Below, piece by piece: positions 586-37,515 of a stretch of 51,643 nt of DNA. Where the stretch lies: sequence record NC_049852.1. The stretch is one strand, 5' to 3'. A program made the translations under genes and the position numbers. The notes beneath the pieces are model-generated. The model ran no database searches, was not told the origin of the DNA, and saw nothing but the letters and a program-made list of their open reading frames with translations. Each line of letters begins with the position of its first letter. Positions within the stretch are counted from its first letter, which is position 1. The stretch comes from Escherichia phage egaa.

Positions 586-720
586 ACGCCCCCACCCCCA
601 TATACACACCAACCAATACACAACCACACACAACCACCAAAAATACATCAGACATCAATATGACCACATAACACACACAACAGATAGTAATTTATAGATA
701 CATATAAATAAATAATCCTT
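586..720. repeat. CA-rich, G-depleted low-complexity tract followed by AT-rich segment
   Basis: cccccaccccca...atacacaaccacacacaacc...; almost no G on plus strand; shares 13-mer atacacaaccaca with 22840-22852; approximate coordinates. Confidence 0.6.
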
Positions 721-729
721 ATTTTTTAG

Positions 730-820
730 TATGTTATATGGATTTCTCTTGTTATTTTTTGTTATGCGATTCCACGCCGGAATAACACGCATAACAGCGA
801 TAACAGAAGATAACAGTTGC
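730..820. promoter_or_regulatory. inverted iteron array: 3x TGTTAT then 4x (G)ATAACAG at 9-10 bp spacing
   Basis: tatgTTATatgg..cttgTTATttttttgTTATgcg ... aATAACAcgcATAACAGcgATAACAGaagATAACAGttg seen directly; helical-turn spacing typical of iterons or operators. Confidence 0.5.
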
Positions 821-1082: not shown

Positions 1083-1592
1083 ATGAACATCAGCAAAACC
1101 ACTTTCAACTTTGCAAAGCGTCACGGTCTGGATCTGACTGTTGAGGATTTTGGCGATGTTCTGCAACTCTGCATTTGGGAAGCGGATAACGATTGCGAGT
1201 GGCTTTGCTCTTATCGTATCAATTACGATTGCTTAACCTGGCACGACAATATCTATCTGCCGCAAGAAGTGAAAGAGGAATTGCCAGCAACCATCAACAA
1301 CGAAGTTTTTTTTGCGCAAAGTCCTGAAGTTTATTGCCGAGGAGATCAAGAAATGATTAGTGAAGTGGATTTTGAACTTGCAGAGGCCCAGGTAAGGGCC
1401 AAAAAGATGGGGTTGCGGATCTTGACGGAAACAGTCGAGTTCCCGTCGATGCCGTTCGCATCATTCCATAAAGTCACCGTATTAAGTCGCAAACGCGAGT
1501 GTAACGCTCTAATACCTGTCGGTGATGATAAACGCATGGCTAAATTCATTAACGAGTCATGTGATGTTCTGAAGGCTGTTAAACACGGTTAA
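1083..1592 (+). CDS. hypothetical early protein (169 aa)
   Basis: ORF track; RBS caGGAGatagcaATG; downstream of promoter element. Confidence 0.7.
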   Translation: MNISKTTFNFAKRHGLDLTVEDFGDVLQLCIWEADNDCEWLCSYRINYDCLTWHDNIYLPQEVKEELPATINNEVFFAQSPEVYCRGDQEMISEVDFELAEAQVRAKKMGLRILTETVEFPSMPFASFHKVTVLSRKRECNALIPVGDDKRMAKFINESCDVLKAVKHG

Positions 1593-1611
1593 CAACAAAG
1601 GGGAAATAAAG

Positions 1612-1878
1612 ATGGCGCGAATCAATGCACCTATTCCAGTTAAGCGCAAAGCACGTTTGCTCAATAACGGGTGTTACGCCCTGCGGCCTGCATTTAAGGA
1701 TCGCACCTTTCCGGTTATCGTTAACGTGTCGCACGTAAGCCGTAGCGGGAATCTGGCCTTTGTTAACGGTGAGGATCTGTCGGCGCTTGGATTCTATGGC
1801 GGTATTTACGGTGAGGCGCTTGGATTCTGGATTAAAGATCCGTTAACTGGCGAGCGCGAAATCGAATTCCTGGACTAA
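1612..1878 (+). CDS. hypothetical early protein (88 aa)
   Basis: ORF track; RBS gGGGAaataaagATG. Confidence 0.65.
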   Translation: MARINAPIPVKRKARLLNNGCYALRPAFKDRTFPVIVNVSHVSRSGNLAFVNGEDLSALGFYGGIYGEALGFWIKDPLTGEREIEFLD

Positions 1879-1922
1879 ATAGCACTTTTTGTTAAAACTC
1901 AATCCTCGCGATCCGATATATT
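1878..1922 (+). promoter_or_regulatory. conserved 20-bp element + 22-nt spacer + TATATT; putative early promoter
   Basis: aatagcactttttgttaaaa at 1878-1897, TATATT about 1917-1922; 9-bp inverted repeat aatcctcgc/gcgaggatt flanks -10 and overlaps RBS. Confidence 0.6.
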
Positions 1923-1955
1923 ACACACATCGACAACGAATGCGAGGATTTGAAA

Positions 1956-2108
1956 ATGGTTACTCTGATTACCTGGGAACACGAAAACAGCCAGCCGGAA
2001 GTGCGCGAATTTGAAACTGTAGCGGCATGTTATAACCTGGCGAAAAATGGCGGATTCTATAAGGCGCAAATTGTTAACGAATTTGGAGTTGTTGACTATG
2101 AGTTCTAA
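1956..2108 (+). CDS. small hypothetical protein (50 aa), not in ORF track
   Basis: ATG 1956 with RBS GAGGAtttgaaaATG, 58 nt after element; MVTLITWEHENSQPEVREFETVAACYNLAKNGGFYKAQIVNEFGVVDYEF; stop overlaps start of next gene. Confidence 0.5.
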   Translation: MVTLITWEHENSQPEVREFETVAACYNLAKNGGFYKAQIVNEFGVVDYEF

Positions 2109-2388
2109 GTTTTACAGCTATACCGATACAGTGGATTTTGAGGGGATACAATTGCCCCTCCCGAACATATACCGCTATATCACGCGTGACGAACGCGGAT
2201 TTATTGAAGCGTGGCGCTCAAAGCCTGTGCGTGATCTTGAGTTTGGCGGCTTCCGCTCTCTTGAGGGTGAGTTGCCGATCTGCTTCGGTCATCAAAGCGG
2301 TGAAAATCTTCCGGTTGTTGCGCGTCAGTATCGCAGACACAAGATCACAAGGGCACTTATCTCTTTAACTGGATCTGTTGTTGAATAG
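2098..2388 (+). CDS. hypothetical early protein (96 aa; internal ATG of track ORF 2047-2388)
   Basis: Track ORF start at 2047 lies inside upstream ORF; in-frame ATG at 2098 has GGAG 8 nt upstream; TAG stop lies inside next promoter element. Confidence 0.55.
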   Translation: MSSKFYSYTDTVDFEGIQLPLPNIYRYITRDERGFIEAWRSKPVRDLEFGGFRSLEGELPICFGHQSGENLPVVARQYRRHKITRALISLTGSVVE

Positions 2389-2428
2389 CACTTTTTGTTA
2401 AAAACGGTATGCGCCTGAATGGTATATT
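2384..2428 (+). promoter_or_regulatory. conserved 20-bp element + 22-nt spacer + TGgTATATT (extended -10-like)
   Basis: aatagcactttttgttaaaa 2384-2403 containing stop TAG 2386-2388; TATATT 2423-2428. Confidence 0.6.
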
Positions 2429-2459
2429 ACATCCATCGACAACGAACGAGGATTTAAAG

Positions 2460-2654
2460 ATGGAAAATCAAGTTGATGTTAAAGTTGTACAGCGTGAAAC
2501 CACTCACGAGAAAGGAATCTTTAAGAAAGGCGCTATCATCACCATTGATCTTGAGGATATGGTTGCGTATCACTCCGGCCTGACATGGAACGTTGTTAAA
2601 CATGGCAATGCTTTCAAACTGCGTGGATTCAATACTTTTATGGAGGTTGTGTAA
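2460..2654 (+). CDS. hypothetical early protein (64 aa)
   Basis: In-frame ATG (codon 18 of track ORF 2409-2654) with RBS GAGGAtttaaagATG; track start lies inside promoter element. Confidence 0.6.
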   Translation: MENQVDVKVVQRETTHEKGIFKKGAIITIDLEDMVAYHSGLTWNVVKHGNAFKLRGFNTFMEVV

Positions 2655-3037
2655 TGGCCTACACAAACAGCGATTTTAAAAACTCAACTGAAACAATCAA
2701 GGCACAACTCATTAAACAACGCGCTTATAGATTCTGGCTTGATTATCATGATCTAAGGAAAGAGATTGATAATATTATCAAGACTGGTAGCGCGTTCTGT
2801 TCTAACAGGACGGTTTGGCGCAATATGAATGCGCAGTACGGCCATGGAAAAATTCGTGTATTTGGTGAGGCTGTTGAAGCGTATGTGTTTAGCGCAACAA
2901 AAGCTGTAAGTTTTAACGTTGTTGGCATTAATCAGATGAGACTAATAATATTTCATAATTCCTGGATGATTCCCGTTTCTAATGATCATTATGGCGGAGA
3001 CGGAAAGCGAGCAAATCGCCATAGCTATTTCAACTGA
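2654..3037 (+). CDS. hypothetical early protein (127 aa)
   Basis: ORF track; start overlaps upstream stop (gtgtaATGg). Confidence 0.6.
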   Translation: MAYTNSDFKNSTETIKAQLIKQRAYRFWLDYHDLRKEIDNIIKTGSAFCSNRTVWRNMNAQYGHGKIRVFGEAVEAYVFSATKAVSFNVVGINQMRLIIFHNSWMIPVSNDHYGGDGKRANRHSYFN

Positions 3038-3079
3038 TAGCACAAATTGCTAAACAATATTTCTCAAACCTGATATAGT
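3037..3079 (+). promoter_or_regulatory. variant element ATAGCACAAATTGCTAAACA + 21-nt spacer + TATAGT
   Basis: variant of the 20-mer (GAATTG/AAATTG subfamily) directly after TGA stop 3035-3037; ATG of next gene at 3110. Confidence 0.5.
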
Positions 3080-3109
3080 TACCACACCAAATATAATGAG
3101 GATTGCATA

Positions 3110-3337
3110 ATGAAAGCCAAAATCACTAACATCATGCACACTGTTGATGCACATCACCGCGTCGCCATTAAGATGGATAAATCTTGCGGAATCAACCAGT
3201 TAACAATCACGAGCGGTAAAGGTGTGTTTGTTGTTGACTCGCATCCAGGTAGTAAAATCCGCAAATATACGCGCGAAGAATTGATTAAACTTCTTGAAGA
3301 GAACAGCATGTTCATTGAAAGTTGGAAGGCTATCTAA
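3110..3337 (+). CDS. hypothetical early protein (75 aa)
   Basis: ORF track; RBS aatGAGGAttgcataATG. Confidence 0.65.
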   Translation: MKAKITNIMHTVDAHHRVAIKMDKSCGINQLTITSGKGVFVVDSHPGSKIRKYTREELIKLLEENSMFIESWKAI

Positions 3338-3346
3338 TTAATAAAC

Positions 3347-3370
3347 GGGAGGTTTCGCCTCCCTTTAAAT
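3347..3370 (+). terminator. putative intrinsic terminator (GGGAGG-loop-CCTCCC + T/A tract)
   Basis: hairpin gggaggtttcgcctccc followed by tttaaat immediately after stop of 3110-3337. Confidence 0.45.
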
Positions 3371-3383
3371 AAAGGTGATAATA

Positions 3384-3497
3384 ATGACGAAATTTCTTGA
3401 TATTTTATTTGGTGTGATGATGAGCCTTGCTGGTCTTTTAGTTGTCACTGCTGTTATTGCTACTATTCTGATTGTTATCAAGGAGCTTATGAAATGA
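3384..3497 (+). CDS. small hydrophobic membrane peptide (37 aa), not in ORF track
   Basis: ATG 3384 after aaaGGtGAtaataATG; MTKFLDILFGVMMSLAGLLVVTAVIATILIVIKELMK; stop overlaps next start (ATGA). Confidence 0.5.
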   Translation: MTKFLDILFGVMMSLAGLLVVTAVIATILIVIKELMK

Positions 3498-3718
3498 GCC
3501 AGGACGGATTTTTTGAGCGACTGCAAAAAGCGGAAGATGCTGGGCTGAATAAAGAGGCTGCTCTTGAAGTTGCATATAAGATCAGGACACTTGATGATGC
3601 GTTGGGTGAAATGGATATGGAGCATGAATGCGGTGCTGCATTTGCAGATCCAACGATGATTGTTAATGATTGCGGCTGCAATTTTGATCCTAACTGTCCG
3701 CGATGCTTTCCGTTTTGA
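3494..3718 (+). CDS. hypothetical Cys-rich protein (74 aa)
   Basis: ORF track; RBS AGGAGcttatgaaATG; C-terminal CGCNFDPNCPRC. Confidence 0.65.
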   Translation: MSQDGFFERLQKAEDAGLNKEAALEVAYKIRTLDDALGEMDMEHECGAAFADPTMIVNDCGCNFDPNCPRCFPF

Positions 3719-3727
3719 GGTGATGAA

Positions 3728-4438
3728 ATGTATAAGGGTTTAATTTTCTCTTTGTTTGATGGATCTGGTAAAGCCGTTAAAGATTGGGCTGATGCTGGAT
3801 ATAAATGCATTTGCTTTAATTACGATGATGCTGATCACGGTGATTACCACTCAGTGCGCATAATCCATGACAATATCTTTTACGTTAACGCGTGGATTGA
3901 TGATCTATTCAAATATACCGCAAAACTTGAAAATTGGGGTAAGCCTGATTTTATTATGGCGTTCCCTCCATGCACTAACCTTGCAAATAGCGGATCTCGC
4001 CATTGGGCTAAAAAACGCATTGAGAATCCATCGTTCCAGGATGAAGCCGCCGACACTTGCAAAATAGCGGCGCAAATTGCTGATTATTTCGGTGTTCCGT
4101 ACATGATAGAGAATCCTGTAGGCAAGCTGTCAACGCTATGGCGCAAGCCTGATTATACGTTCCATCCGTGCGATTATGCTGGCTATCTGCCGGAAGATGA
4201 TAAACATCCCGACTTTCCTGATATTATTCCGGCACGGGATCGGTACTTTAAGAAAACATGCCTTTGGACTGGAAACGGATTTGTTATTCCTCCGCGCGCA
4301 ACAATCATCCCTAAAGATGGCGACAAGGATAATCCTGGTTGGGCCAAAACTGGCGGAAAATCGTCTCGCACAAAGATGATCCGCTCCCTCACACCGCGCG
4401 GTTTTGCTCGCGCCGTCTTTGAAGCAAACGCAAAATAG
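3728..4438 (+). CDS. putative DNA methyltransferase (cytosine-C5-like motifs)
   Basis: FSLFDGSG (FxGxG AdoMet motif), FPPC (Pro-Cys catalytic motif), MIENPVG (ENV-like); short for a C5-MTase, family call by motif only. Confidence 0.5.
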   Translation: MYKGLIFSLFDGSGKAVKDWADAGYKCICFNYDDADHGDYHSVRIIHDNIFYVNAWIDDLFKYTAKLENWGKPDFIMAFPPCTNLANSGSRHWAKKRIENPSFQDEAADTCKIAAQIADYFGVPYMIENPVGKLSTLWRKPDYTFHPCDYAGYLPEDDKHPDFPDIIPARDRYFKKTCLWTGNGFVIPPRATIIPKDGDKDNPGWAKTGGKSSRTKMIRSLTPRGFARAVFEANAK

Positions 4439-4478
4439 CACTTTTTGTTAAAAGCCAGGTGTAAAAGCCTGGCATAAT
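4434..4478 (+). promoter_or_regulatory. conserved 20-bp element + 22-nt spacer + CATAAT
   Basis: aatagcactttttgttaaaa 4434-4453 with TAG stop 4436-4438 inside; GC hairpin gccagg-tgtaaaa-cctggc in spacer. Confidence 0.6.
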
Positions 4479-4509
4479 CACTTCACCGAAACGAAAGGAG
4501 AAATAAACG

Positions 4510-4896
4510 ATGAAAGTTATCTGCAATAAAACCAACGTTTTGATGAGCGGTCGTTATAAAGCTGTATACGAAAAAATTGCTGGTAGCGATGATGTGATCG
4601 AGTTGGAACAATTCCAGGTAAAGAGCATTACAAAGGGTAGCAAGTGGCAAAACGCTGTTGAGTCTGACTATCGTCATATCAAGACAAAAACAATTAAATG
4701 CACATTTGTAGATCACAAGATCCCGTGCAAAAAGCATTTCAAAGAAGGAAAGCGCTACCAGATTGAGCAAGGGCGCGCGCTTGGTGCTGTTGCTGGTTAT
4801 GTTTTTGATGAAGCTGGCGACCGCTGGACGCTATACCGCGAAGAAGTAGGATTTTCCGCTGGTGGCTGTCATTTATTTGAGGCTATGTATAAGTGA
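4510..4896 (+). CDS. hypothetical early protein (128 aa)
   Basis: ORF track; RBS aaAGGAGaaataaacgATG. Confidence 0.7.
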   Translation: MKVICNKTNVLMSGRYKAVYEKIAGSDDVIELEQFQVKSITKGSKWQNAVESDYRHIKTKTIKCTFVDHKIPCKKHFKEGKRYQIEQGRALGAVAGYVFDEAGDRWTLYREEVGFSAGGCHLFEAMYK

Positions 4897-5114
4897 TCAA
4901 GGCTGAATATCGCTATAAGGTGACTCATTCAGCAACAAAAACCTTCAAGCATGGCGATATAGTCAGGCCAATAAAGAAAACGATGGTTGGATGGCTGATT
5001 GGTCTTTCTTACCACAAATCACTTTATTTTGATTTTGCTGATTCCGTAACCGCGCATTGCCATAGCGCAAGGGAACCAGAAAAAATCTTAGTTAGCATAG
5101 AGCGGATCAAATAG
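4893..5114 (+). CDS. hypothetical early protein (73 aa, GTG start overlapping upstream TGA)
   Basis: ORF track; GTGA overlap; TAG stop inside next element. Confidence 0.5.
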   Translation: MIKAEYRYKVTHSATKTFKHGDIVRPIKKTMVGWLIGLSYHKSLYFDFADSVTAHCHSAREPEKILVSIERIK

Positions 5115-5154
5115 CATTTTTTGTTAAATGCGGGTAGCATTGGTGCGGTATTAT
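5109..5154 (+). promoter_or_regulatory. element variant AATAGCATTTTTTGTTAAAT + 22-nt spacer + TATTAT
   Basis: 5109-5128; hairpin gcggtattattgccgc overlaps -10. Confidence 0.55.
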
Positions 5155-5183
5155 TGCCGCATCAAAAAAAGGAGTTATCATCA

Positions 5184-6767
5184 ATGAATTTTTCGTTTGA
5201 AACCAACAAACTAACACCAAAACAAATTATCGAATTAGCTGATGCACAAGGATTGTCTCCGGTGCGCGTGTCCATTCAGGCAAACGGATACCGTCAATCG
5301 TCCAGCTTTTGGGGTGAGGTTAATGATGTTAATAACGGAAATGATCGCTACCCTGTAATTTCTCTTGGCAATGATGTTGATGTTGTTGGTAAGTTGGCGC
5401 GCAACATTGCTCGCTCAGTTCAGTTCCCTGAATCATCGGCATATATGCATTTTATCGGCTGCGTGTCTGCTGCAATGCTTGGACGCTTCACGGTTGAGTA
5501 TCACGGAACGGATCAGCCGACCGCTCTTTATGTTGTCACAAGCCAGCCTCCTTCAACTGGTAAATCTGCCGTTAACAGCCTGGCACTTGCTCCAATGGTT
5601 GCAGAAGTGGAAAGAATTAACGATCAGCGAAAGAAGGAAAGAAAAAAGATTCAGGCAAAGTTGGCAGGTCTTGCAAAAGAGATGAAAAGCGAGCGCTCCG
5701 GCGCTGATATGGAATCTCTATACCAGGAGAAAGAAGATCTGGAAGAAAAACTGGAAAAGATGTGTGACATTGTTTTCCCTGTGTCCGACACCACGCCGGA
5801 AGGACTTGCAAGAATCAACAATCGCCAGGGTAACTTTGCTGTGATTTCAGACGAGGCAACGAGTATTAACAGCCTTTTAGGTCTGACATATGCTAATAGC
5901 GAACGTAAAACCAACAGCGAACTTGTGCTGAAAGCATGGGATCATGGTCATGTTTCTATAGCTCGTGCAAACGCTGACAACAATATGAGTTTTAAAGCTC
6001 TTGGCTGTATGGCGGTGATTGCCCAGGATGAAACAATCAATGCCATCATGGATGCAGGATCGCGCGGTATCGGTGTGAGTGAGCGTTATTTGCTTGTGCG
6101 TGAGGAATCATTTTTAGGTCGTCGAAAGTTTGTTGATGATAACGGTGATTCTACTTATGAGCCTGTTGATGGAGAACTGAAAAGTCAATATTTTAAGCTG
6201 ATCCATAACATCATGAGTGAATCAAACATCCAGCTTAAGATCAGTAAATCAGCAATGCGAGTTCTTAACATGGCTCGTCAGGAGATGGAGCCGCACCTTG
6301 CTGATGGCGGAAAGTATTCGCATACAATGCTGCGCGGTGCTCTTGGCAAAATGGATAAGCAGGTGATCAGGATTGCTTCGGTTTTGCACACTATCCGCAA
6401 CTGGTTTAATCCTGGTGGATACCCTCAGAAGTCGAAAGAGATTGAAGTTGAAACCGTTCAAGAAGCACTGCTGATGTTTAGCGAGTTGAGCAAAACATAC
6501 ATTAGCGCCGCCAACGCTTCTGGCTATGCTGGTGATGATGCTGAAATGGGTAAACTAATCGAGATTATCACTCGACACGGTAAGGCTAACAAGGGGATCT
6601 TGAATGTTCGCGCCATATATGAGGCTGCACGAAAAGTTAAGCCGTTTGTTGGCCAGGCTGGCGTAATGAAGCGTATGGAAACGCAACTGCTGCCGATGCT
6701 TGAAGAAAGAAATTATATTTGTGTGATTAATGGCGTTGTTTTTGTAAATCCAACATTGCTGGGGTAA
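5184..6767 (+). CDS. P-loop NTPase-like early protein (527 aa)
   Basis: In-frame ATG (codon 22 of track ORF) with RBS aaAGGAGttatcatcaATG; Walker-A-like QPPSTGKSA; coiled-coil KKERKKIQAKLAGLAKEMK; function unknown. Confidence 0.65.
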   Translation: MNFSFETNKLTPKQIIELADAQGLSPVRVSIQANGYRQSSSFWGEVNDVNNGNDRYPVISLGNDVDVVGKLARNIARSVQFPESSAYMHFIGCVSAAMLGRFTVEYHGTDQPTALYVVTSQPPSTGKSAVNSLALAPMVAEVERINDQRKKERKKIQAKLAGLAKEMKSERSGADMESLYQEKEDLEEKLEKMCDIVFPVSDTTPEGLARINNRQGNFAVISDEATSINSLLGLTYANSERKTNSELVLKAWDHGHVSIARANADNNMSFKALGCMAVIAQDETINAIMDAGSRGIGVSERYLLVREESFLGRRKFVDDNGDSTYEPVDGELKSQYFKLIHNIMSESNIQLKISKSAMRVLNMARQEMEPHLADGGKYSHTMLRGALGKMDKQVIRIASVLHTIRNWFNPGGYPQKSKEIEVETVQEALLMFSELSKTYISAANASGYAGDDAEMGKLIEIITRHGKANKGILNVRAIYEAARKVKPFVGQAGVMKRMETQLLPMLEERNYICVINGVVFVNPTLLG

Positions 6768-6769
6768 TT

Positions 6770-7162
6770 ATGTTTCTTCTGGATCTGTATCGCTGGTGTG
6801 AGTCATTCGAATGGTTTACGCGTCAACATATAGCAAAATTTATCTTTCAGCATAGAGAATGTGAGCGGCTCGCAAGGGCCGCAGGATTTACGCCGAGAAT
6901 GTTTGCTACTGCCGTTTCAAAAGAGTTTTGCGCAAGAATGATGACCGCTGGTTATCTTGATGGAGTTGGTGGAAAGTTCTGGTGTAAGAAAGGATCCGCA
7001 AATCGCCCTTTCTCGTTTGAACTTTACAGCCTGGAAGGTATGCAAAACGAATGGGTTAGGGATGTTTTACGGATCGGAGAAATGAGCGATGAAGAACTGT
7101 TTACGTCAAATGCTAATAGACAAAATATTGAAGTTCTGCGCCGTAAGTTCAATCTCACATGA
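6770..7162 (+). CDS. hypothetical early protein (130 aa)
   Basis: ORF track; start 3 nt after upstream stop. Confidence 0.6.
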   Translation: MFLLDLYRWCESFEWFTRQHIAKFIFQHRECERLARAAGFTPRMFATAVSKEFCARMMTAGYLDGVGGKFWCKKGSANRPFSFELYSLEGMQNEWVRDVLRIGEMSDEELFTSNANRQNIEVLRRKFNLT

Positions 7163-7283
7163 AGACTTCATGCACGCAATGTTAACGCTAATTCATTCTG
7201 ACATGCGAGCGTTTAACATATCAGAGCATAATTTGTGTGATGAGGACGGCGTTTTGTTGGTTACTGTAAAGCGTATCGAATAG
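7089..7283 (+). CDS. possible overlapping small ORF (64 aa) ending inside promoter element
   Basis: ORF track; overlaps 6770-7162 by 74 nt; GGAG 10 nt upstream; its TAG is the TAG of the next element; true start uncertain. Confidence 0.3.
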   Translation: MKNCLRQMLIDKILKFCAVSSISHEDFMHAMLTLIHSDMRAFNISEHNLCDEDGVLLVTVKRIE

Positions 7284-7323
7284 CACTTTTTGTTAAAACT
7301 CCCGATCTCGTATCGGGTATATT
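7279..7323 (+). promoter_or_regulatory. conserved 20-bp element + 22-nt spacer + TATATT
   Basis: aatagcactttttgttaaaa 7279-7298; hairpin cccgat-ctcgt-atcggg in spacer. Confidence 0.6.
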
Positions 7324-7356
7324 TGTTTCATCGGAACGAATATGAGGATTTTAAAA

Positions 7357-7578
7357 ATGGCTATCAAAGTAACAAAGAAAGAGACAAAAATCATCAATGT
7401 AACTTTTGATGTTTTCAACGACAAAGGAACTGCGACAAGAGAAGATGGCAGCACGTTTGAAATAAATCGTTACGAATACAATGAAATGTTATGGGATATA
7501 AAGAAGAAAGGTGCTTACATTCTTGTCGAGAATGATTATAGCGGAAACAGCTTTCAAGATTTGATGGATGCACTATAA
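7357..7578 (+). CDS. hypothetical early protein (73 aa)
   Basis: In-frame ATG (codon 6 of track ORF 7342-7578) with RBS GAGGAttttaaaaATG. Confidence 0.6.
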   Translation: MAIKVTKKETKIINVTFDVFNDKGTATREDGSTFEINRYEYNEMLWDIKKKGAYILVENDYSGNSFQDLMDAL

Positions 7579-7581
7579 AAC

Positions 7582-7608
7582 AAAGGAGGCGTTAAGCCTC
7601 CTTTTTGT
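7582..7608. terminator. bidirectional intrinsic terminator between convergent genes
   Basis: aaaggaggc-gttaa-gcctccttt followed by tttgttg (plus) and tttgtttt (minus); spanin stop codon lies in the loop. Confidence 0.65.
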
Positions 7609-7990
7609 TGCCTTTGCGGTAGGAAAAGTAAAGCATTGACAAAAGACCGCTAAAAATTGCAGCGCAATAGATTATGGGATCGTACCACTTCCTTTGCTCA
7701 CCCTGCACAACCTGGATTTTATCAGCCTTGATGGTATTGGCCTGAATGGTTGACGTAGTGAAATCCTTCTTGCTGGAAGTGTCCACCTTATCAACCGCAG
7801 ATTCCTTTATTGTAGTTTCCTGTTTTGTGCTGGTGTCCTGCTTTGCGGTAACGCCAACGGTCTGCTTTACGTTCTCCGCTCCTGCCTGTGCTGTGATTTC
7901 CGGCTTACTACCGATTAATCCGGTCAGTGGCGTAACGCTTGAACATCCAGACAAAATAACAGCGATAGCGATTATTGATAACTTTCGCAT
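7592..7990 (-). CDS. unimolecular spanin (u-spanin; outer-membrane lipoprotein with C-terminal transmembrane domain)
   Basis: N-terminal lipobox ...AVILSGCSS, Thr/Lys-rich periplasmic linker, C-terminal hydrophobic helix YCAAIFSGLLSMLYF; directly downstream of endolysin as in phage T1 gp11. Confidence 0.7.
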   Translation of the reverse strand: MRKLSIIAIAVILSGCSSVTPLTGLIGSKPEITAQAGAENVKQTVGVTAKQDTSTKQETTIKESAVDKVDTSSKKDFTTSTIQANTIKADKIQVVQGEQRKWYDPIIYCAAIFSGLLSMLYFSYRKGNKKEA

Positions 7991-11566: not shown

Positions 11567-11981
11567 TCATCATGTATTCTACAGCGATCATGAATTGCTT
11601 ATATCCGTATGTTACTGCGGCGAATCCGCCAAGCTCACGCACACGGCGTAAGAAGGCTTTTTGCTCCTTGCTGACTGGTGAAGCCTTACCCTTGCCAGAC
11701 TTATTGACGCGCTTCATCTCAATAGCTGCGAAAGGGTAGCGGCCTTTTAATCCAATCAGGATGATAAAATCACTTACTCCCTTAACGAGTCCGGCTTGCT
11801 GATCCATCATTGCGGTGGCGATCCCCTTGTCGCCCTCGTTTTTCGTATGCCATGCCAGCAATTCAGGATGAGCATAAGTTAACCATTGAAACCCCCCGAT
11901 CTGGTGCGATTCCTCTTTCAGCGTATCTGTCGGATCTCTTTCGTAAAACTCCAGATAATCGCCTTTATCAGTCATTGCCAT
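11562..11981 (-). CDS. VRR-NUC domain nuclease (PD-(D/E)XK fold)
   Basis: SDFIILIG ... AAIEMKR (D ... E-x-K) motif arrangement; adjacent to helicase. Confidence 0.6.
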   Translation of the reverse strand: MAMTDKGDYLEFYERDPTDTLKEESHQIGGFQWLTYAHPELLAWHTKNEGDKGIATAMMDQQAGLVKGVSDFIILIGLKGRYPFAAIEMKRVNKSGKGKASPVSKEQKAFLRRVRELGGFAAVTYGYKQFMIAVEYMMK

Positions 11982-14007
11982 AATTAAATTCCTTCTTGTA
12001 CAAATTATCTTCTCCCTTGCTAGTCTTGCGGTGAGTCACGCGCGATGGTGGCATGATGTGATTCACATATTGCATTATTTTTCGTGCATTACGATAGCTC
12101 GCCACCATGCCAGCAACGCGGCGATCTGGTATGTGCTTAAGAGCAACGCCTCGCCATTTTGCGCGGCAAATTTGGCTTTCAGATTCAGGGAAAAATATCT
12201 CTCTCGCCCTAAAAGTGTCTGCGCCATCGTAAAGCTCATAATTAAATATTATCCCTTTCTGGTTTTTCGTCATGTCAACAGAGAAAGATTGCACCTTGAA
12301 CCAGTCGTTTTTTGTGTAGTGCTTTCCGCTCAACTTCTCGTTAGGGTCAATCAATGACATGTCGCAATGTCTGCATACCCTGGCCGCAATATCATTTTTC
12401 GTTCCACAACCGCGCTGAATAATCTTTTTAGTGCGCGGGTCAATCTGATCATCACATGTCCTGAATTTAAAGAACCACTCGCATCTGTTGCCGTTTTCGT
12501 CTACGTGCATACAACGACGAGCATAATAGCTATTAAGAGTTCCGCAAACAGGACAAGGCTTCGGATCTTTACCGTTCCTGAATCGCTTCTGATGTTGCGC
12601 CTGTTCCAGTATCGGATCAAAATAAAGCTCACCTAACTCGTCCATCGTTCCTGAAAAATCCATAACCAGGTGATCATCTTTCTTGAAGCCTTGTTCCTTA
12701 TGCCATTTCTTAAGAAGTCGCATTCCGCGTCCTAAAAGCTGAATCAGCAAAGTTAGCGATCCAATCTTACGCAGAATAACAGACGTATCCCAAAACGGCA
12801 CGTTAACGCCAGTAGTTAGCGCCTGAACCTGGAAGATGTACTTTACCTTCCCTTCGTATGCTTCCCTCAACCACTCCTTGCGCTGGTTGTCGCCAGTCTT
12901 ACCAGTAATGATCCTGTAAGTCGTTCCAGGTGGCAATGCCGCCGCTGCCTCTTTGCAATGCCTTTCTCCTGCACATGTCACAAGTACGCCGTTACGGTTT
13001 TTACAGATCTCGTGAACTTTCGCCATGATGCGCTTTGTCATGGTCGCTTCTTCATGAATTTTTTGTTCCATCCTGCGAAGCGTTTTAGCGTCAAAGTCTG
13101 CGACGCCATCCTCGCTGGATGCCTCAAACTCTGAAAGGTCATACCCTAGATCGCCAACGTCGCCAAAATTTGTTGGCACAACAGAACCGAATTTGATCAG
13201 GTAGTTGGTGTCAATATTAGTAACCTGTTCACGCCAGAATCCTTTCTGTTTTTTGTCTTCTACCAGGATCGGGACTACTCCGCGAAACTCCGAACCAGTC
13301 ATACCAAAGATGCGCAGTTCATGACCATATGCTTTCCTGCAACGTCGCATCATTTCCATGATAATAACAGTGTATTGCGTGCGGCCTGTTCCCTCCATTG
13401 GTAAGCCATCCTCACCAATCATGAACTCTTCGCATTCGTTATCGCTCGTTATGTCATAATATGGATTTGGTACTTTTTCGCCTTTCTTCGTTGTCATTTG
13501 TAAAAATGATTCGTCTTTCTCTATTGCGTCGGCAAGGTCTTCCCAATCCACCTGGTGACATTCATCAATCCCGATAACGTGAGGAACATAGTCGCCAAGC
13601 GCTTTAAACAGTCCATTAACTACAGTTCCCTCAGAACCAACAACGATCGGAAAGTATGCGCTTTTTGTCTTCAGTCCTGCACAATAGATGGAGTTCGGCA
13701 CACCAAGATTTGTTATCTCTTCAGAATCCTGATCCACAATCTCAGCCTGGCGAGCAAGGACCATCATTTTCAAGCCCATTTTACGGCACTGGTGAGCAAC
13801 CATTGCAAACATCAATGTTTTGCCAGCCGATACGGACGCTTTAACAAAGAATGGGTGCTCATAATTTTTCATACGCTTTGCGATCTCAGCGTATGCAACG
13901 CACTGGTAAGGGTAAGGCACAATCTCGCCAACAGTGAATCGCTCCTGAATGGATTTAATTACCGCTTCACCAAGTGCTGATATTTGTTTTTCAATGTTTG
14001 GAATCAT
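11968..14007 (-). CDS. SF2 DEAD/DExH-box helicase with C-terminal zinc ribbon
   Basis: Walker A SVSAGKTLM, DECH box (GIDECHQV), C-terminal CPVCG...CRHCD; start moved to in-frame ATG 14007 (codon 23; aaAGGttttagaATG) because track start is TTG inside the promoter element. Confidence 0.8.
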   Translation of the reverse strand: MIPNIEKQISALGEAVIKSIQERFTVGEIVPYPYQCVAYAEIAKRMKNYEHPFFVKASVSAGKTLMFAMVAHQCRKMGLKMMVLARQAEIVDQDSEEITNLGVPNSIYCAGLKTKSAYFPIVVGSEGTVVNGLFKALGDYVPHVIGIDECHQVDWEDLADAIEKDESFLQMTTKKGEKVPNPYYDITSDNECEEFMIGEDGLPMEGTGRTQYTVIIMEMMRRCRKAYGHELRIFGMTGSEFRGVVPILVEDKKQKGFWREQVTNIDTNYLIKFGSVVPTNFGDVGDLGYDLSEFEASSEDGVADFDAKTLRRMEQKIHEEATMTKRIMAKVHEICKNRNGVLVTCAGERHCKEAAAALPPGTTYRIITGKTGDNQRKEWLREAYEGKVKYIFQVQALTTGVNVPFWDTSVILRKIGSLTLLIQLLGRGMRLLKKWHKEQGFKKDDHLVMDFSGTMDELGELYFDPILEQAQHQKRFRNGKDPKPCPVCGTLNSYYARRCMHVDENGNRCEWFFKFRTCDDQIDPRTKKIIQRGCGTKNDIAARVCRHCDMSLIDPNEKLSGKHYTKNDWFKVQSFSVDMTKNQKGIIFNYELYDGADTFRAREIFFPESESQICRAKWRGVALKHIPDRRVAGMVASYRNARKIMQYVNHIMPPSRVTHRKTSKGEDNLYKKEFNYGND

Positions 14008-14040
14008 TCTAAAACCTTTGAGTAATGCCATTTGGCGTGT

Positions 14041-14084
14041 ATAATACACAATCATTAAATCATCGTTTAACAAAAAATGCTATT
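14041..14084 (-). promoter_or_regulatory. element variant (minus) AATAGCATTTTTTGTTAAA + 21-nt spacer + TATTAT; overlaps a plus-strand TATAAT
   Basis: rc of 14066-14084; minus -10 TATTAT = rc of 14041-14046, plus TATAAT at 14039-14044: back-to-back divergent promoters for helicase and 14097 gene. Confidence 0.5.
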
Positions 14085-14096
14085 GGAGAATGAATA

Positions 14097-14570
14097 ATGA
14101 AAGAGCAACGAATCGCAGTATCAACAGGCAAGATTGACAAGCGCACAATTAATGGCAATAACGGAACAAGACGAGGCAAGGATAAGAAGAAGCGCAAGCG
14201 ACCGACAGGTTATTATGTTCTAAAAGATGAGGTGCGTGCCGGGCTAAAAGCGCGACTTGATATCCTTATTGAGTATTACGGAAGTGTATCAGCAATGGCA
14301 AAACGTCTTAACGTTAGCCAGCAAACTGTAAATCAGTGGCGCGTTCGCGGTATGATTTCAGCCGCTGGCGCTCAAAAGGTGCATAACGATTACAAAAAAT
14401 ATGGCTGCCAAGGCTATCGCGCGTCATTCTGCCGTCCAGATCTGCGATTTGATTCCAATGGTAAACCTCTCACAAAGAGATGTGATAAGCGTGAAATGTT
14501 GCGAGTGGTAAGAATGTCAGATTATGAACCTGGCGGATTCCTGTATAAACCTGAAAGCACTAATTGCTAA
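14097..14570 (+). CDS. HTH DNA-binding protein (XRE/Cro-like helix-turn-helix)
   Basis: SVSAMAKRLNVSQQTVNQWRVRGMIS helix-turn-helix; basic N-terminus; RBS GGAGaatgaataATG. Confidence 0.6.
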   Translation: MKEQRIAVSTGKIDKRTINGNNGTRRGKDKKKRKRPTGYYVLKDEVRAGLKARLDILIEYYGSVSAMAKRLNVSQQTVNQWRVRGMISAAGAQKVHNDYKKYGCQGYRASFCRPDLRFDSNGKPLTKRCDKREMLRVVRMSDYEPGGFLYKPESTNC

Positions 14571-14624
14571 AAACAATGCCTGGCATGATGTTATCATCTG
14601 TCAGGCTTTTTGTTTGAGGTGTAT

Positions 14625-15557
14625 ATGAATAACGAAAACTTTATGGTTTATCAAAAGGAAGATGTTCTCCCATATATGCAAGGATTGTGGCGTGAGGCGC
14701 TACAAAGTATTTGCGGTCTTCCAAATGAAGTTTTTAACGGCAAGCATCAATCTTGCCCCCACTGCGGCGGAAAGGATCGCTTCAGATGGACGGATAAACT
14801 TGGCGATAAAAAAGGCGATGGCGGTGCGATCTGCAACGTGTGCGGTAATGATACCGGAATTGGTTGGATCATGAAGCTAACCGGAGAACCTTACAGCGAA
14901 GTGATCAATATTTTGGGCCGTTTTCTTGGAAAAGTTCCGCAGGACTATAGAATAAAGGCAAATAAGCGAGTATCTCGTGATTCTGGTTATTCGTTTGGGA
15001 AACAGGCAAGCCATGAATGCTGCGAGCGCGTTATGTCAAAAACACTAAAATTTGATCGCACGCCGTTAAGCACATATGAAGGAATATACCCGCCTGAAGA
15101 TGGTCATTATGATTGCGGCGTAAAAGATGGTCGATACATTCACGCGTTACCATGTTACCTTGTGCATTCAGATGATATTGATGATGAAATGTGCAATGTG
15201 CTTTTCATTGATGAAGAAGGTAAACAGTCTTTTCTAGCAAAGGACTACACGCGCGGGTCGATTGTGAGAACAGGAAGCACAGATAAGACGATCTATCTTT
15301 GCGTTGACTGGATTGATGCGCAACATATTCACCTTGCAACTGGACAAGAGGTTTGGGCCTGTTTTGATGCAACTAACATTGAGATTGTGGCTTACAGGTA
15401 TAAAGGCAACAGAAGAATGCGAGTTGTCTGTAAGAGCACAGATCGTGACGCTATCATAGCTGCCGAGGAAAGAGGTCTTGAAATTATGATTCCGATTAAT
15501 GATAATTACAGGAAAGGGATAGAGAGGAAGGTTTACAAACCTGAATCTCTTCTCTAA
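14625..15557 (+). CDS. DNA primase (T7 gp4-like zinc ribbon)
   Basis: CPHCGGKDRFRW...CNVCGND zinc ribbon typical of phage primase N-termini; in-frame ATG at codon 6 with GAGGTG upstream (track start TTG). Confidence 0.7.
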   Translation: MNNENFMVYQKEDVLPYMQGLWREALQSICGLPNEVFNGKHQSCPHCGGKDRFRWTDKLGDKKGDGGAICNVCGNDTGIGWIMKLTGEPYSEVINILGRFLGKVPQDYRIKANKRVSRDSGYSFGKQASHECCERVMSKTLKFDRTPLSTYEGIYPPEDGHYDCGVKDGRYIHALPCYLVHSDDIDDEMCNVLFIDEEGKQSFLAKDYTRGSIVRTGSTDKTIYLCVDWIDAQHIHLATGQEVWACFDATNIEIVAYRYKGNRRMRVVCKSTDRDAIIAAEERGLEIMIPINDNYRKGIERKVYKPESLL

Positions 15558-33705: not shown

Positions 33706-33718
33706 TTCTTTCTCCTTG

Positions 33719-33737
33719 ATAGCACTTTTTGTTAAAA
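33719..33737 (+). promoter_or_regulatory. copy of conserved element (ATAGCACTTTTTGTTAAAA) in inverted orientation relative to surrounding late genes
   Basis: plus-strand copy inside minus-strand late operon, 14-32 nt upstream of the G gene start on the opposite strand. Confidence 0.4.
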
Positions 33738-37477: not shown

Positions 37478-37496
37478 GATAGCATTTTTTGTTAAA
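37478..37496 (+). promoter_or_regulatory. copy of conserved element (ATAGCATTTTTTGTTAAA) in inverted orientation, in leader region of major capsid gene
   Basis: plus-strand copy about 50 nt upstream (opposite strand) of capsid ATG. Confidence 0.4.
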
Positions 37497-37515
37497 CGTG
37501 CAACATAATTTTGTG

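Follow-up and report, generated by a model that had tools for sequence, protein, structure and literature searches.

The gene at positions 5184–6767 of Escherichia phage egaa is very probably that of the replicative helicase of the phage, a divergent MCM-like AAA+ (superfamily 6) motor of the DUF3987 family. That the 527-aa product belongs to DUF3987 and has an AAA+/MCM-like fold is as good as certain. ATP-dependent helicase activity is highly probable, given the conserved catalytic residues of the protein and one characterized relative; a role at the replication fork together with the phage primase, the phage SSB and host DNA polymerase III is probable from the genomic context. A preliminary description, made from the DNA sequence, had treated the protein as one of unknown function, which no longer holds: the family has been classed among the SF6/MCM-like replicative helicases (PMC4889955) and one member is a proven helicase (PMC11724360).

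Genome and gene call

The window—the whole stretch of 51,643 nt that was analyzed—covers essentially the entire genome of a coliphage of the T1-like group (Drexlerviridae, Tempevirinae, Hanrivervirus). The DNA of region 5184–6767 is 99.8% identical to that of Escherichia phage vB_EcoS_G29-2 and 99.5% identical to that of phage herni. The features at the start of the gene, and the gene itself, are as follows.

5110–5154, + strand: putative promoter-like cassette, comprising the 20-nt repeat AATAGCACTTTTTGTTAAAA at 5110–5129 (2 mismatches), 19 nt, and a −10-like TATTAT at 5149–5154
5169–5174, + strand: Shine-Dalgarno sequence AAGGAG, 9 nt before the ATG at 5184
5184–6767, + strand: coding sequence of the DUF3987-family AAA+ helicase (527 aa, 58.3 kDa, stop included), called from the open reading frame, Pfam, PHROG, tblastn and purifying selection

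The first ATG of the open reading frame 5121–6767 (+) is at 5184 and yields the 527-aa protein; the start Met is common to 47 aligned homologues. Start codon, Shine-Dalgarno sequence, homologue starts and codon-level substitution thus all agree with the gene as first delimited. The TTG at 5121 was rejected as a start codon, since it lies inside the promoter-like repeat and is not preceded by a Shine-Dalgarno sequence, and homologues begin at the ATG at 5184. In comparison with phage SECphi27, 198 codons carry synonymous changes only and 62 change the amino acid, with nucleotide differences at codon positions 1, 2, and 3 numbering 60, 26, and 229; to judge from these substitutions, the gene evolves as coding sequence under purifying selection. 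Opposite-strand and overlapping reading frames inside the gene found no support, the plus-strand frame being the one with coding-type substitution, and an Rfam search of both strands of 4400–7700 returned no match. The 20-nt repeat AATAGCACTTTTTGTTAAAA is present in 17 copies in the window (0.02 expected), the copies have a common layout, and the same repeat has been described in the paper on phage TLS (PMC11447400). These features suggest that the cassette may function as a promoter.

Family membership and fold

The protein matches Pfam DUF3987 (PF13148), the family that had been proposed for checking, with 149.6 bits against a gathering cutoff of 27 (E 1.8e-43; residues 82–431 on profile positions 3–350 of 364), and PHROG 2373, "DNA helicase," from end to end (E 1e-245); residues 442–526 also match a second, separate PHROG of unknown function. 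No confident homology to a non-ATPase family, the outcome that was to count against the ATPase reading, emerged; the match was to DUF3987 instead. Three characteristics of DUF3987 are found in the protein, namely the HMM score, the Walker A and B motifs and the C-terminal winged helix; fusion or immediate adjacency to a primase, a frequent feature of the family, is absent in egaa. An NCBIfam scan gave no match, and a Pfam scan at E ≤ 1 matched neither the MCM family (PF00493) nor DnaB_C. Sequence searches of the PDB, with the single protein or with a 47-sequence profile, brought up nothing but coiled-coil noise (E ≥ 0.17), so that sequence comparison detects no homologue of solved structure. 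At the level of structure, the nearest folds to the AAA+ core are MCM ATPase domains and other AAA+ proteins of the pre-sensor-1-hairpin clade; matches to ORC/Cdc6 align only 80–100 residues, mostly in the winged helix. Foldseek comparison with predicted viral structures recovered phage DUF3987 proteins, many of them fused to PrimPol, TOPRIM or NrS-1-type primase modules.

The family is large and, among T1-like phages, pervasive. An exhaustive profile search with a cutoff of E ≤ 1e-3 yielded 5,816 cluster representatives, of which 3,273 also passed E ≤ 1e-10; the distant members were reached by this search, a profile re-search of a word-indexed database having returned the same 167 proteins. 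By tblastn the helicase is found in 919 phage records, full-length in 898, including a 100% identical copy annotated "helicase" in phage Henu8 and the T1 counterpart, ST9 (57.5% identity; RefSeq label "DNA helicase"). Synteny of the gene is kept in T1 and in Klebsiella phage MezzoGao, and the DUF3987 helicase is a core gene of T1-like phages.

Domain organization and catalytic motifs

The following domains and motifs were delimited from an AF2 model, fold comparison and residue conservation (all on the + strand).

5184–5483: N-terminal all-helical domain (aa 1–100; AF2 helices within 12–98), clade-specific and fast-evolving
aa 101–310: AAA+ core (AF2 model and fold comparison)
5544–5567: Walker A/P-loop Q121-P-P-S-T-G-K127-S128 (aa 121–128; conservation)
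5562–5759: charged antiparallel helical hairpin (aa 127–192) extending the P-loop helix; AF2 helices 127–169 and 173–192, pLDDT 84–97
5835–5855: Walker B/helicase motif II F218-A-V-I-S-D223-E224 (AF2 strand 218–222; conservation)
5949–5996: predicted pre-sensor-1 β-hairpin (aa 256–271; AF2 strands 256–259 and 268–271, between Walker B and the sensor-1 strand)
6018–6032: putative sensor-1 region I279-A-Q281-D-E283, at the end of AF2 strand 274–280
6078–6089: putative arginine-finger motif S299-E300-R301-Y302, directly before strand 302–306 (conservation)
6171–6521: helical lid domain (aa 330–446) with R384-G-x-x-G-K389-x-D391, the sensor-2 region (AF2; conservation)
6522–6764: C-terminal winged-helix domain (aa 447–527)

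A bare GK[ST] arises in 26% of shuffles of the protein, and GK[ST] together with hhh.DE at the observed spacing in 0.34%. The STGKS at residues 124–128 is taken to be a real P-loop because the motif Q121-P-P-S-x-G126-K127-S128 is invariant in the 47 aligned homologues and lies after a β strand in the AAA+ fold, which bears out the initial assignment of the protein to the P-loop NTPases. The same description saw no clear helicase motif II; the Walker B motif is nevertheless present, with E224 conserved at 95–100% family-wide and D223 at 91% in the close T1-like clade, Ser or Ala often standing in place of D223 in distant DUF3987 members. Family-wide percentages refer to 273 proteins aligned to the DUF3987 family HMM and divided into close, middle and distant groups, across which Q121 is conserved at 93–95%, K127 at 95–97%, and Q281 and K389 at 93–98% each. 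E300 and R301 are invariant in the 47 homologues and conserved at 87–98% over the 273 proteins (R301 alone, 93–98%); this S-E-R-Y/F motif resembles the "SRF" arginine finger of MCM and would act in trans. The assignment of I279–E283 to sensor 1 is suggested by its position, and the hairpin at aa 256–271 is, in the model, a likely DNA-contacting pore loop.

The long charged coiled coil noted at the outset is a charged helical stretch, with 43–53% charged residues in aa 136–195 compared with 24% overall; AF2 folds it into an antiparallel hairpin, and such a hairpin does not speak for a coiled coil between molecules. The two Walker motifs, A and B, are 97 residues apart here (median 81 in distant members); the charged insert between them is found family-wide and is longest in this protein. 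Within the T1-like clade the P-loop and core are most conserved and the N-terminal domain, hairpin and winged helix least, the winged helix being the fastest-evolving domain, as would be anticipated for an enzyme whose docking surfaces are lineage-specific. The N-terminal helical domain may be a module for binding a partner or the primase.

Replication genes of the phage

Three further genes bear on the role of the helicase.

6770–7162, + strand: 130-aa winged-helix protein, starting 3 nt past the helicase stop; syntenic
11968–14073, − strand: SF2 helicase open reading frame (701 codons), with a promoter-type repeat at 14084
14610–15557, + strand: phage primase with a T7-gp4-type Zn ribbon (Pfam Zn_Ribbon_Prim, E 1.8e-12), without a helicase half

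The primase matches only positions 5–316 of the 667-position primase PHROG 510, i.e., the N-terminal half, and therefore lacks the helicase part that is often found in primases of this kind. The genes annotated in the near-identical phage herni include SSB, Erf annealase, exonuclease VIII, VRR-NUC, the SF2 helicase and two methyltransferases; a DNA polymerase, an initiator and a helicase loader are absent from them. This inventory and the helicase-less primase together leave the DUF3987 protein as the sole candidate for a ring-shaped fork helicase, and the primase is presumed to be its functional partner. Two observations count against the fork-helicase reading: the gene is not beside the primase, though fusion or adjacency is usual in DUF3987, and a second helicase, of SF2, is encoded near the primase with one small regulator gene between them. 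The latter protein is taken as "the" helicase in the phage TLS paper (PMC11447400). Its 701 codons and promoter-type repeat, the same as that of the DUF3987 gene, also mean that the DUF3987 protein is the largest early protein, as had been claimed, within the rightward block 1083–7578 and not overall.

The helicase and primase genes are 7.8 kb apart, and between them lie the lysis cassette and a block on the opposite strand. The proposal of a primase-associated ATPase is fair for the family, given that relatives come joined to primase modules of the DnaG, PriCT-2 and BT4734 types. Among these distant relatives, one (P0158) combines an N-terminal DnaG-type CHC2 zinc finger with the N-terminal domain of the egaa helicase itself; in another (P0194) a DnaB N-terminal domain replaces the helical N-terminal domain of the clade, and others carry PriCT-2 (P0245) or a BT4734-type AEP primase (P0260). 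BLASTP detected no homology between the primase part of P0158 and the egaa primase, so the fusion ties the helicase to primases only as a class.

In other genera, too, the gene of the 130-aa protein immediately follows that of the helicase (50% identity to T1 ST10, 47% to MezzoGao_36), and all 117 of its 117 homologues are on T1-like contigs; searches gave no Pfam match and no PDB sequence match. To judge by synteny and fold, the protein may be a partner of the helicase or an accessory that binds DNA.

Intergenic repeats and a possible role in initiation

A second question is whether the helicase also selects the origin, as an initiator that binds the repeats at 730–820 would.

731–816, no strand assigned: cluster of ATAACA/TGTTAT hexamers in the divergent early intergenic region (7 copies in 120–150 nt, compared with 57 in 51.6 kb)

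The cluster is 4.4 kb from the gene, in keeping with the 4 kb first noted for this iteron hub, and lies between the two early arms beside CA-rich and AT-rich tracts. The equivalent place holds CGATTAACA three times in T1 and GTTTGGTAA three times in MezzoGao, each beside an AT-rich tract; such different repeats at one place indicate a position that is origin-like or operator-like, with genus-specific repeats. In herni, megablast and realignment revealed a degenerate version of the ATAACA repeat under the annotated "gp31."

Initiator-helicases such as SaPI Rep, the α protein of P4 and papillomavirus E1 recognize an origin, melt it and load themselves. It is possible, if unlikely, that the C-terminal winged helix of the egaa protein likewise recognizes an origin (for instance, the 731–816 cluster) and that the protein melts the origin and loads itself, which would account for the absence of an annotated initiator or loader gene. 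The presence of the winged helix and its status as the fastest-evolving domain fit such a role, as does the fact that the winged helices of the genera differ along with their intergenic repeats. The herni helicase, however, differs from that of egaa at only 3 residues and herni keeps the same repeat in degenerate form, and everything else also differs between the genera; the correlation of repeat with winged helix therefore does not discriminate. The repeats are 4.4 kb away and no iteron-like repeats were found in the helicase gene or its flanks, C-terminal winged helices of the MCM type are often regulatory and not sequence-specific, the coupled 130-aa protein and a Cro/YdaS-like regulator beside the primase are other candidate binders, and the cluster could equally be an operator. 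Binding of the iterons by a replication initiator, as suggested in the preliminary description, is thus left with no positive support. More doubtful still is the fuller form of the idea, in which the winged helix, alone or with the coupled 130-aa protein (6770–7162), would read the genus-specific repeats, melt the adjacent AT-rich tract and assemble there, making replication independent of host DnaA, DnaC and DnaB.

Improbable, too, is a motor for recombination and repair, i.e., a branch-migration or fork-remodeling AAA+ helicase (ComM/RuvB-like) that would serve recombination-dependent replication and concatemers while host DnaB acts as the main fork helicase. A non-unwinding ATPase—a loader or remodeler for the host helicase or a host-takeover factor, with ATP binding as a switch—has precedent in AAA+ loaders such as DnaC and in the Ser or Ala that some distant family members have for the Walker B Asp, but is very improbable, given a fold in the MCM/pre-sensor-1-hairpin clade and not the DnaA/DnaC clade, a conserved catalytic Glu and arginine finger, a family member that unwinds DNA, and a PADLOC search with nothing meaningful (JetC at E 0.005 is a coiled-coil artefact), which leaves the earlier suggestion of host takeover unsupported as well.

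Comparison with known systems

Phage DUF3987 proteins were described as divergent SF6 (MCM-like) helicases with a C-terminal wHTH and an association with primases, and were concluded to be replicative helicases (Kazlauskas et al., 2016; PMC4889955); the same prediction was made from primase fusions (Kazlauskas et al., 2018; PMC5862659). In the literature, fusion or adjacency to a primase is presented as common and not as obligatory for DUF3987. Members considered in the 2016 study include the helicase of Mycobacterium phage Corndog and N4 dns, a protein required for replication (PMC4889955). With these the egaa protein shares the family, the predicted MCM-like AAA+ core with C-terminal winged helix, and the proposed role; N4 dns, however, has a C-terminal AEP domain and many SF6 members are fused or adjacent to a primase, whereas the egaa helicase stands alone.

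The one characterized DUF3987 helicase is AgaPH, a PriCT-DUF3987 protein of a Seonamhaeicola mobile element, which as purified in 2025 is an oligomeric, ATP/dATP-dependent 5′–3′ helicase that binds its PrimPol and is inactive when either of its Walker motifs, A or B, is mutated (PMC11724360). Compared by description, AgaPH resembles the egaa protein in its DUF3987 domain, in a Walker A whose first position is non-canonical and a Walker B, in its small C-terminal domain and in working with a primase. It differs in having an N-terminal PriCT and a gene beside that of an AEP PrimPol; egaa has a helical N-terminus, a longer charged hairpin and a T7-type Zn-ribbon primase 7.8 kb off.

The likeness to MCM (archaeal MCM, MCM2-7, MCM8/9) lies in the nearest solved folds, the predicted pre-sensor-1 hairpin and the "SRF"-type arginine finger. 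The differences are several: Pfam gives no MCM match at E ≤ 1, with identity of 11–18%; the OB-fold/Zn N-terminal domain of MCM is replaced by the helical domain; the MCM helix-2 insert is absent from the egaa model, in which helix 205–215 runs directly into the Walker B strand; and a charged hairpin of 65 residues is added after the P-loop helix. MCM has 3′–5′ polarity and AgaPH the opposite. The egaa motor works like MCM and is not a member of the MCM family. T7 gp4 is a functional analogue, whose job the egaa primase, with its gp4-type Zn ribbon, and the DUF3987 protein would do together; the helicase of gp4 is a RecA-fold SF4 (DnaB-like) motor fused to the primase, whereas the egaa motor is an unrelated AAA+ protein on a separate polypeptide, lacks a DnaB_C match and does not have the RecA fold of SF4 enzymes. 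Cch of SCCmec and the SaPI primase-helicase/Rep are MCM-like proteins of the DUF927 type, a different Pfam family, and SaPI Rep has demonstrated iteron-specific origin binding.

Proposed mechanism

As a replicative helicase, the protein would be transcribed from its own copy of the repeated promoter-like cassette and would most likely assemble, as 58-kDa subunits, into a ring. ATP would be bound at the subunit interfaces, where K127/S128 (Walker A) and D223/E224 (Walker B) of one subunit meet R301 of its neighbor, and hydrolysis would drive the pore β-hairpin (aa 256–271) along single-stranded DNA, so that the helicase unwinds the phage duplex ahead of host DNA polymerase III, which enters the model because the phage encodes no polymerase. 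Primers would come from the Zn-ribbon primase (14610–15557), and the displaced strand would be covered by the phage SSB (20001–20453); the N-terminal helical domain, the charged hairpin and the winged helix are likely surfaces for docking and DNA handling. In classical T1 genetics, genes 1 and 2 are DNA-negative. A search of the accessible literature turned up neither biochemistry nor genetics of a T1-like DUF3987 member, and nothing on classical T1 genetics or the host dna-gene requirements of T1; of the literature on triggers of phage defense, an Avs paper and an escape-mutant preprint were found, neither of which concerns the DUF3987 helicase.

Significance

The gene is an ordinary T1-like DUF3987 helicase gene, its family and an identical protein ("helicase" in GenBank) being already known. 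As a discovery it amounts to little, the MCM-like nature and replicative role of the family having been proposed in 2016 and unwinding by a member shown in 2025. Its practical value is in annotation: GenBank labels for the same gene vary among "hypothetical protein," "putative ATPase," "DNA replication protein," and "DNA helicase," while the neighboring SF2 enzyme is taken as the replication helicase in at least one genome paper on the T1 group. For the biology of these phages, the helicase, its coupled winged-helix neighbor and the helicase-less primase offer a compact and tractable system in which to study an MCM-like replisome of a bacterial virus that would use host Pol III. If the doubtful self-loading initiator reading were true, the origin of a classical T-phage would be defined, along with the first origin-recognition mechanism for DUF3987.

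A Repeated Promoter-Like Cassette

The 20-nt promoter-like repeat AATAGCACTTTTTGTTAAAA occurs 17 times, counted on both strands of the window with ≤3 mismatches allowed, vs. 0.02 copies expected.

Positions of the 20-nt repeat copies
+ strand: 1001, 1878, 2384, 4434, 5110, 7279, 23051, 33718, 37478
− strand: 10546, 11566, 14084, 45940, 48588, 49805, 50860, 51323

At these copies the order of elements is invariant: the repeat is followed after ∼19 nt by a TATAAT-like hexamer, and then come a conserved CATCGAAACGA, the SD and the ATG; the ∼19-nt spacer is often a GC-rich dyad, with a sequence that varies from copy to copy. TTGTTA and the −10-like hexamer are separated by 22 nt, a wider gap than a standard σ70 promoter allows. 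The repeat itself is already known from phage TLS, where it was reported as aaATAGCACnnnTTGnTAAAA in 21 copies, its function unsettled (PMC11447400). Two copies, 33718–33737 (+) and 37478–37497 (+), face opposite to the long structural ORFs encoded there on the − strand; they could direct antisense transcription or the expression of small + strand genes that have escaped annotation.

The Divergent Early Intergenic Region

Three features lie between the two early arms of the window:

604–637, CA-rich tract
about 690–720, AT-rich tract
731–816, seven ATAACA/TGTTAT hexamers

At positions equivalent to window 600–820, three copies of a short repeat adjoin an AT-rich tract in T1 (CGATTAACA; L004:1–540) and in Klebsiella phage MezzoGao (GTTTGGTAA; L003:3187–3539), and the short repeats differ among the three phages. 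This arrangement resembles an origin or operator; the deposited linear T1 record has its ends at this position.

Phage-collection searches with window 5184–6767 and 560–1082 matched this coliphage to about 20 GenBank "Campylobacter phage" records (MG0656xx; stated host Campylobacter jejuni). Identity to these records is 83.5–91.5% for intergenic region 560–1082 and, among the matches listed, 96.7% to MG065638 for the helicase gene (5184–6767); T1-like coliphage sequence under this name looks like the product of contamination or a wrong host label.

The Primase and Helicase Loci

14097–14570, Cro/YdaS-like regulator, directly 5′ of the primase gene
14610–15557 (+), phage primase with a T7-gp4-type Zn ribbon, without the helicase half
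4510–4896 (+), 128-aa ORF of unassigned function (PHROG 2684), two genes 5′ of the helicase gene

The primase aligns to positions 5–316 only of the 667 in primase PHROG 510. The SF2 helicase and VRR-NUC genes lie on the opposite strand, divergent from it.

The product of 4510–4896 is 75% identical to that of a syntenic 128-aa ORF of SECphi27 (L006:1825–2211). The type I Mokosh defence trigger is reported to be a SECphi27 "protein of unknown function (128aa)" (bioRxiv 10.1101/2022.08.27.505566), and this SECphi27 homologue may be that protein.

HNH homing-endonuclease genes lie immediately 5′ of the helicase gene in T1 (ST8, L002:2213–2752) and immediately 3′ of it in MezzoGao (MezzoGao_37, L003:8569–9111); the window has no such gene at either helicase-flanking position. 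Mobile endonucleases appear to land repeatedly at the helicase locus.
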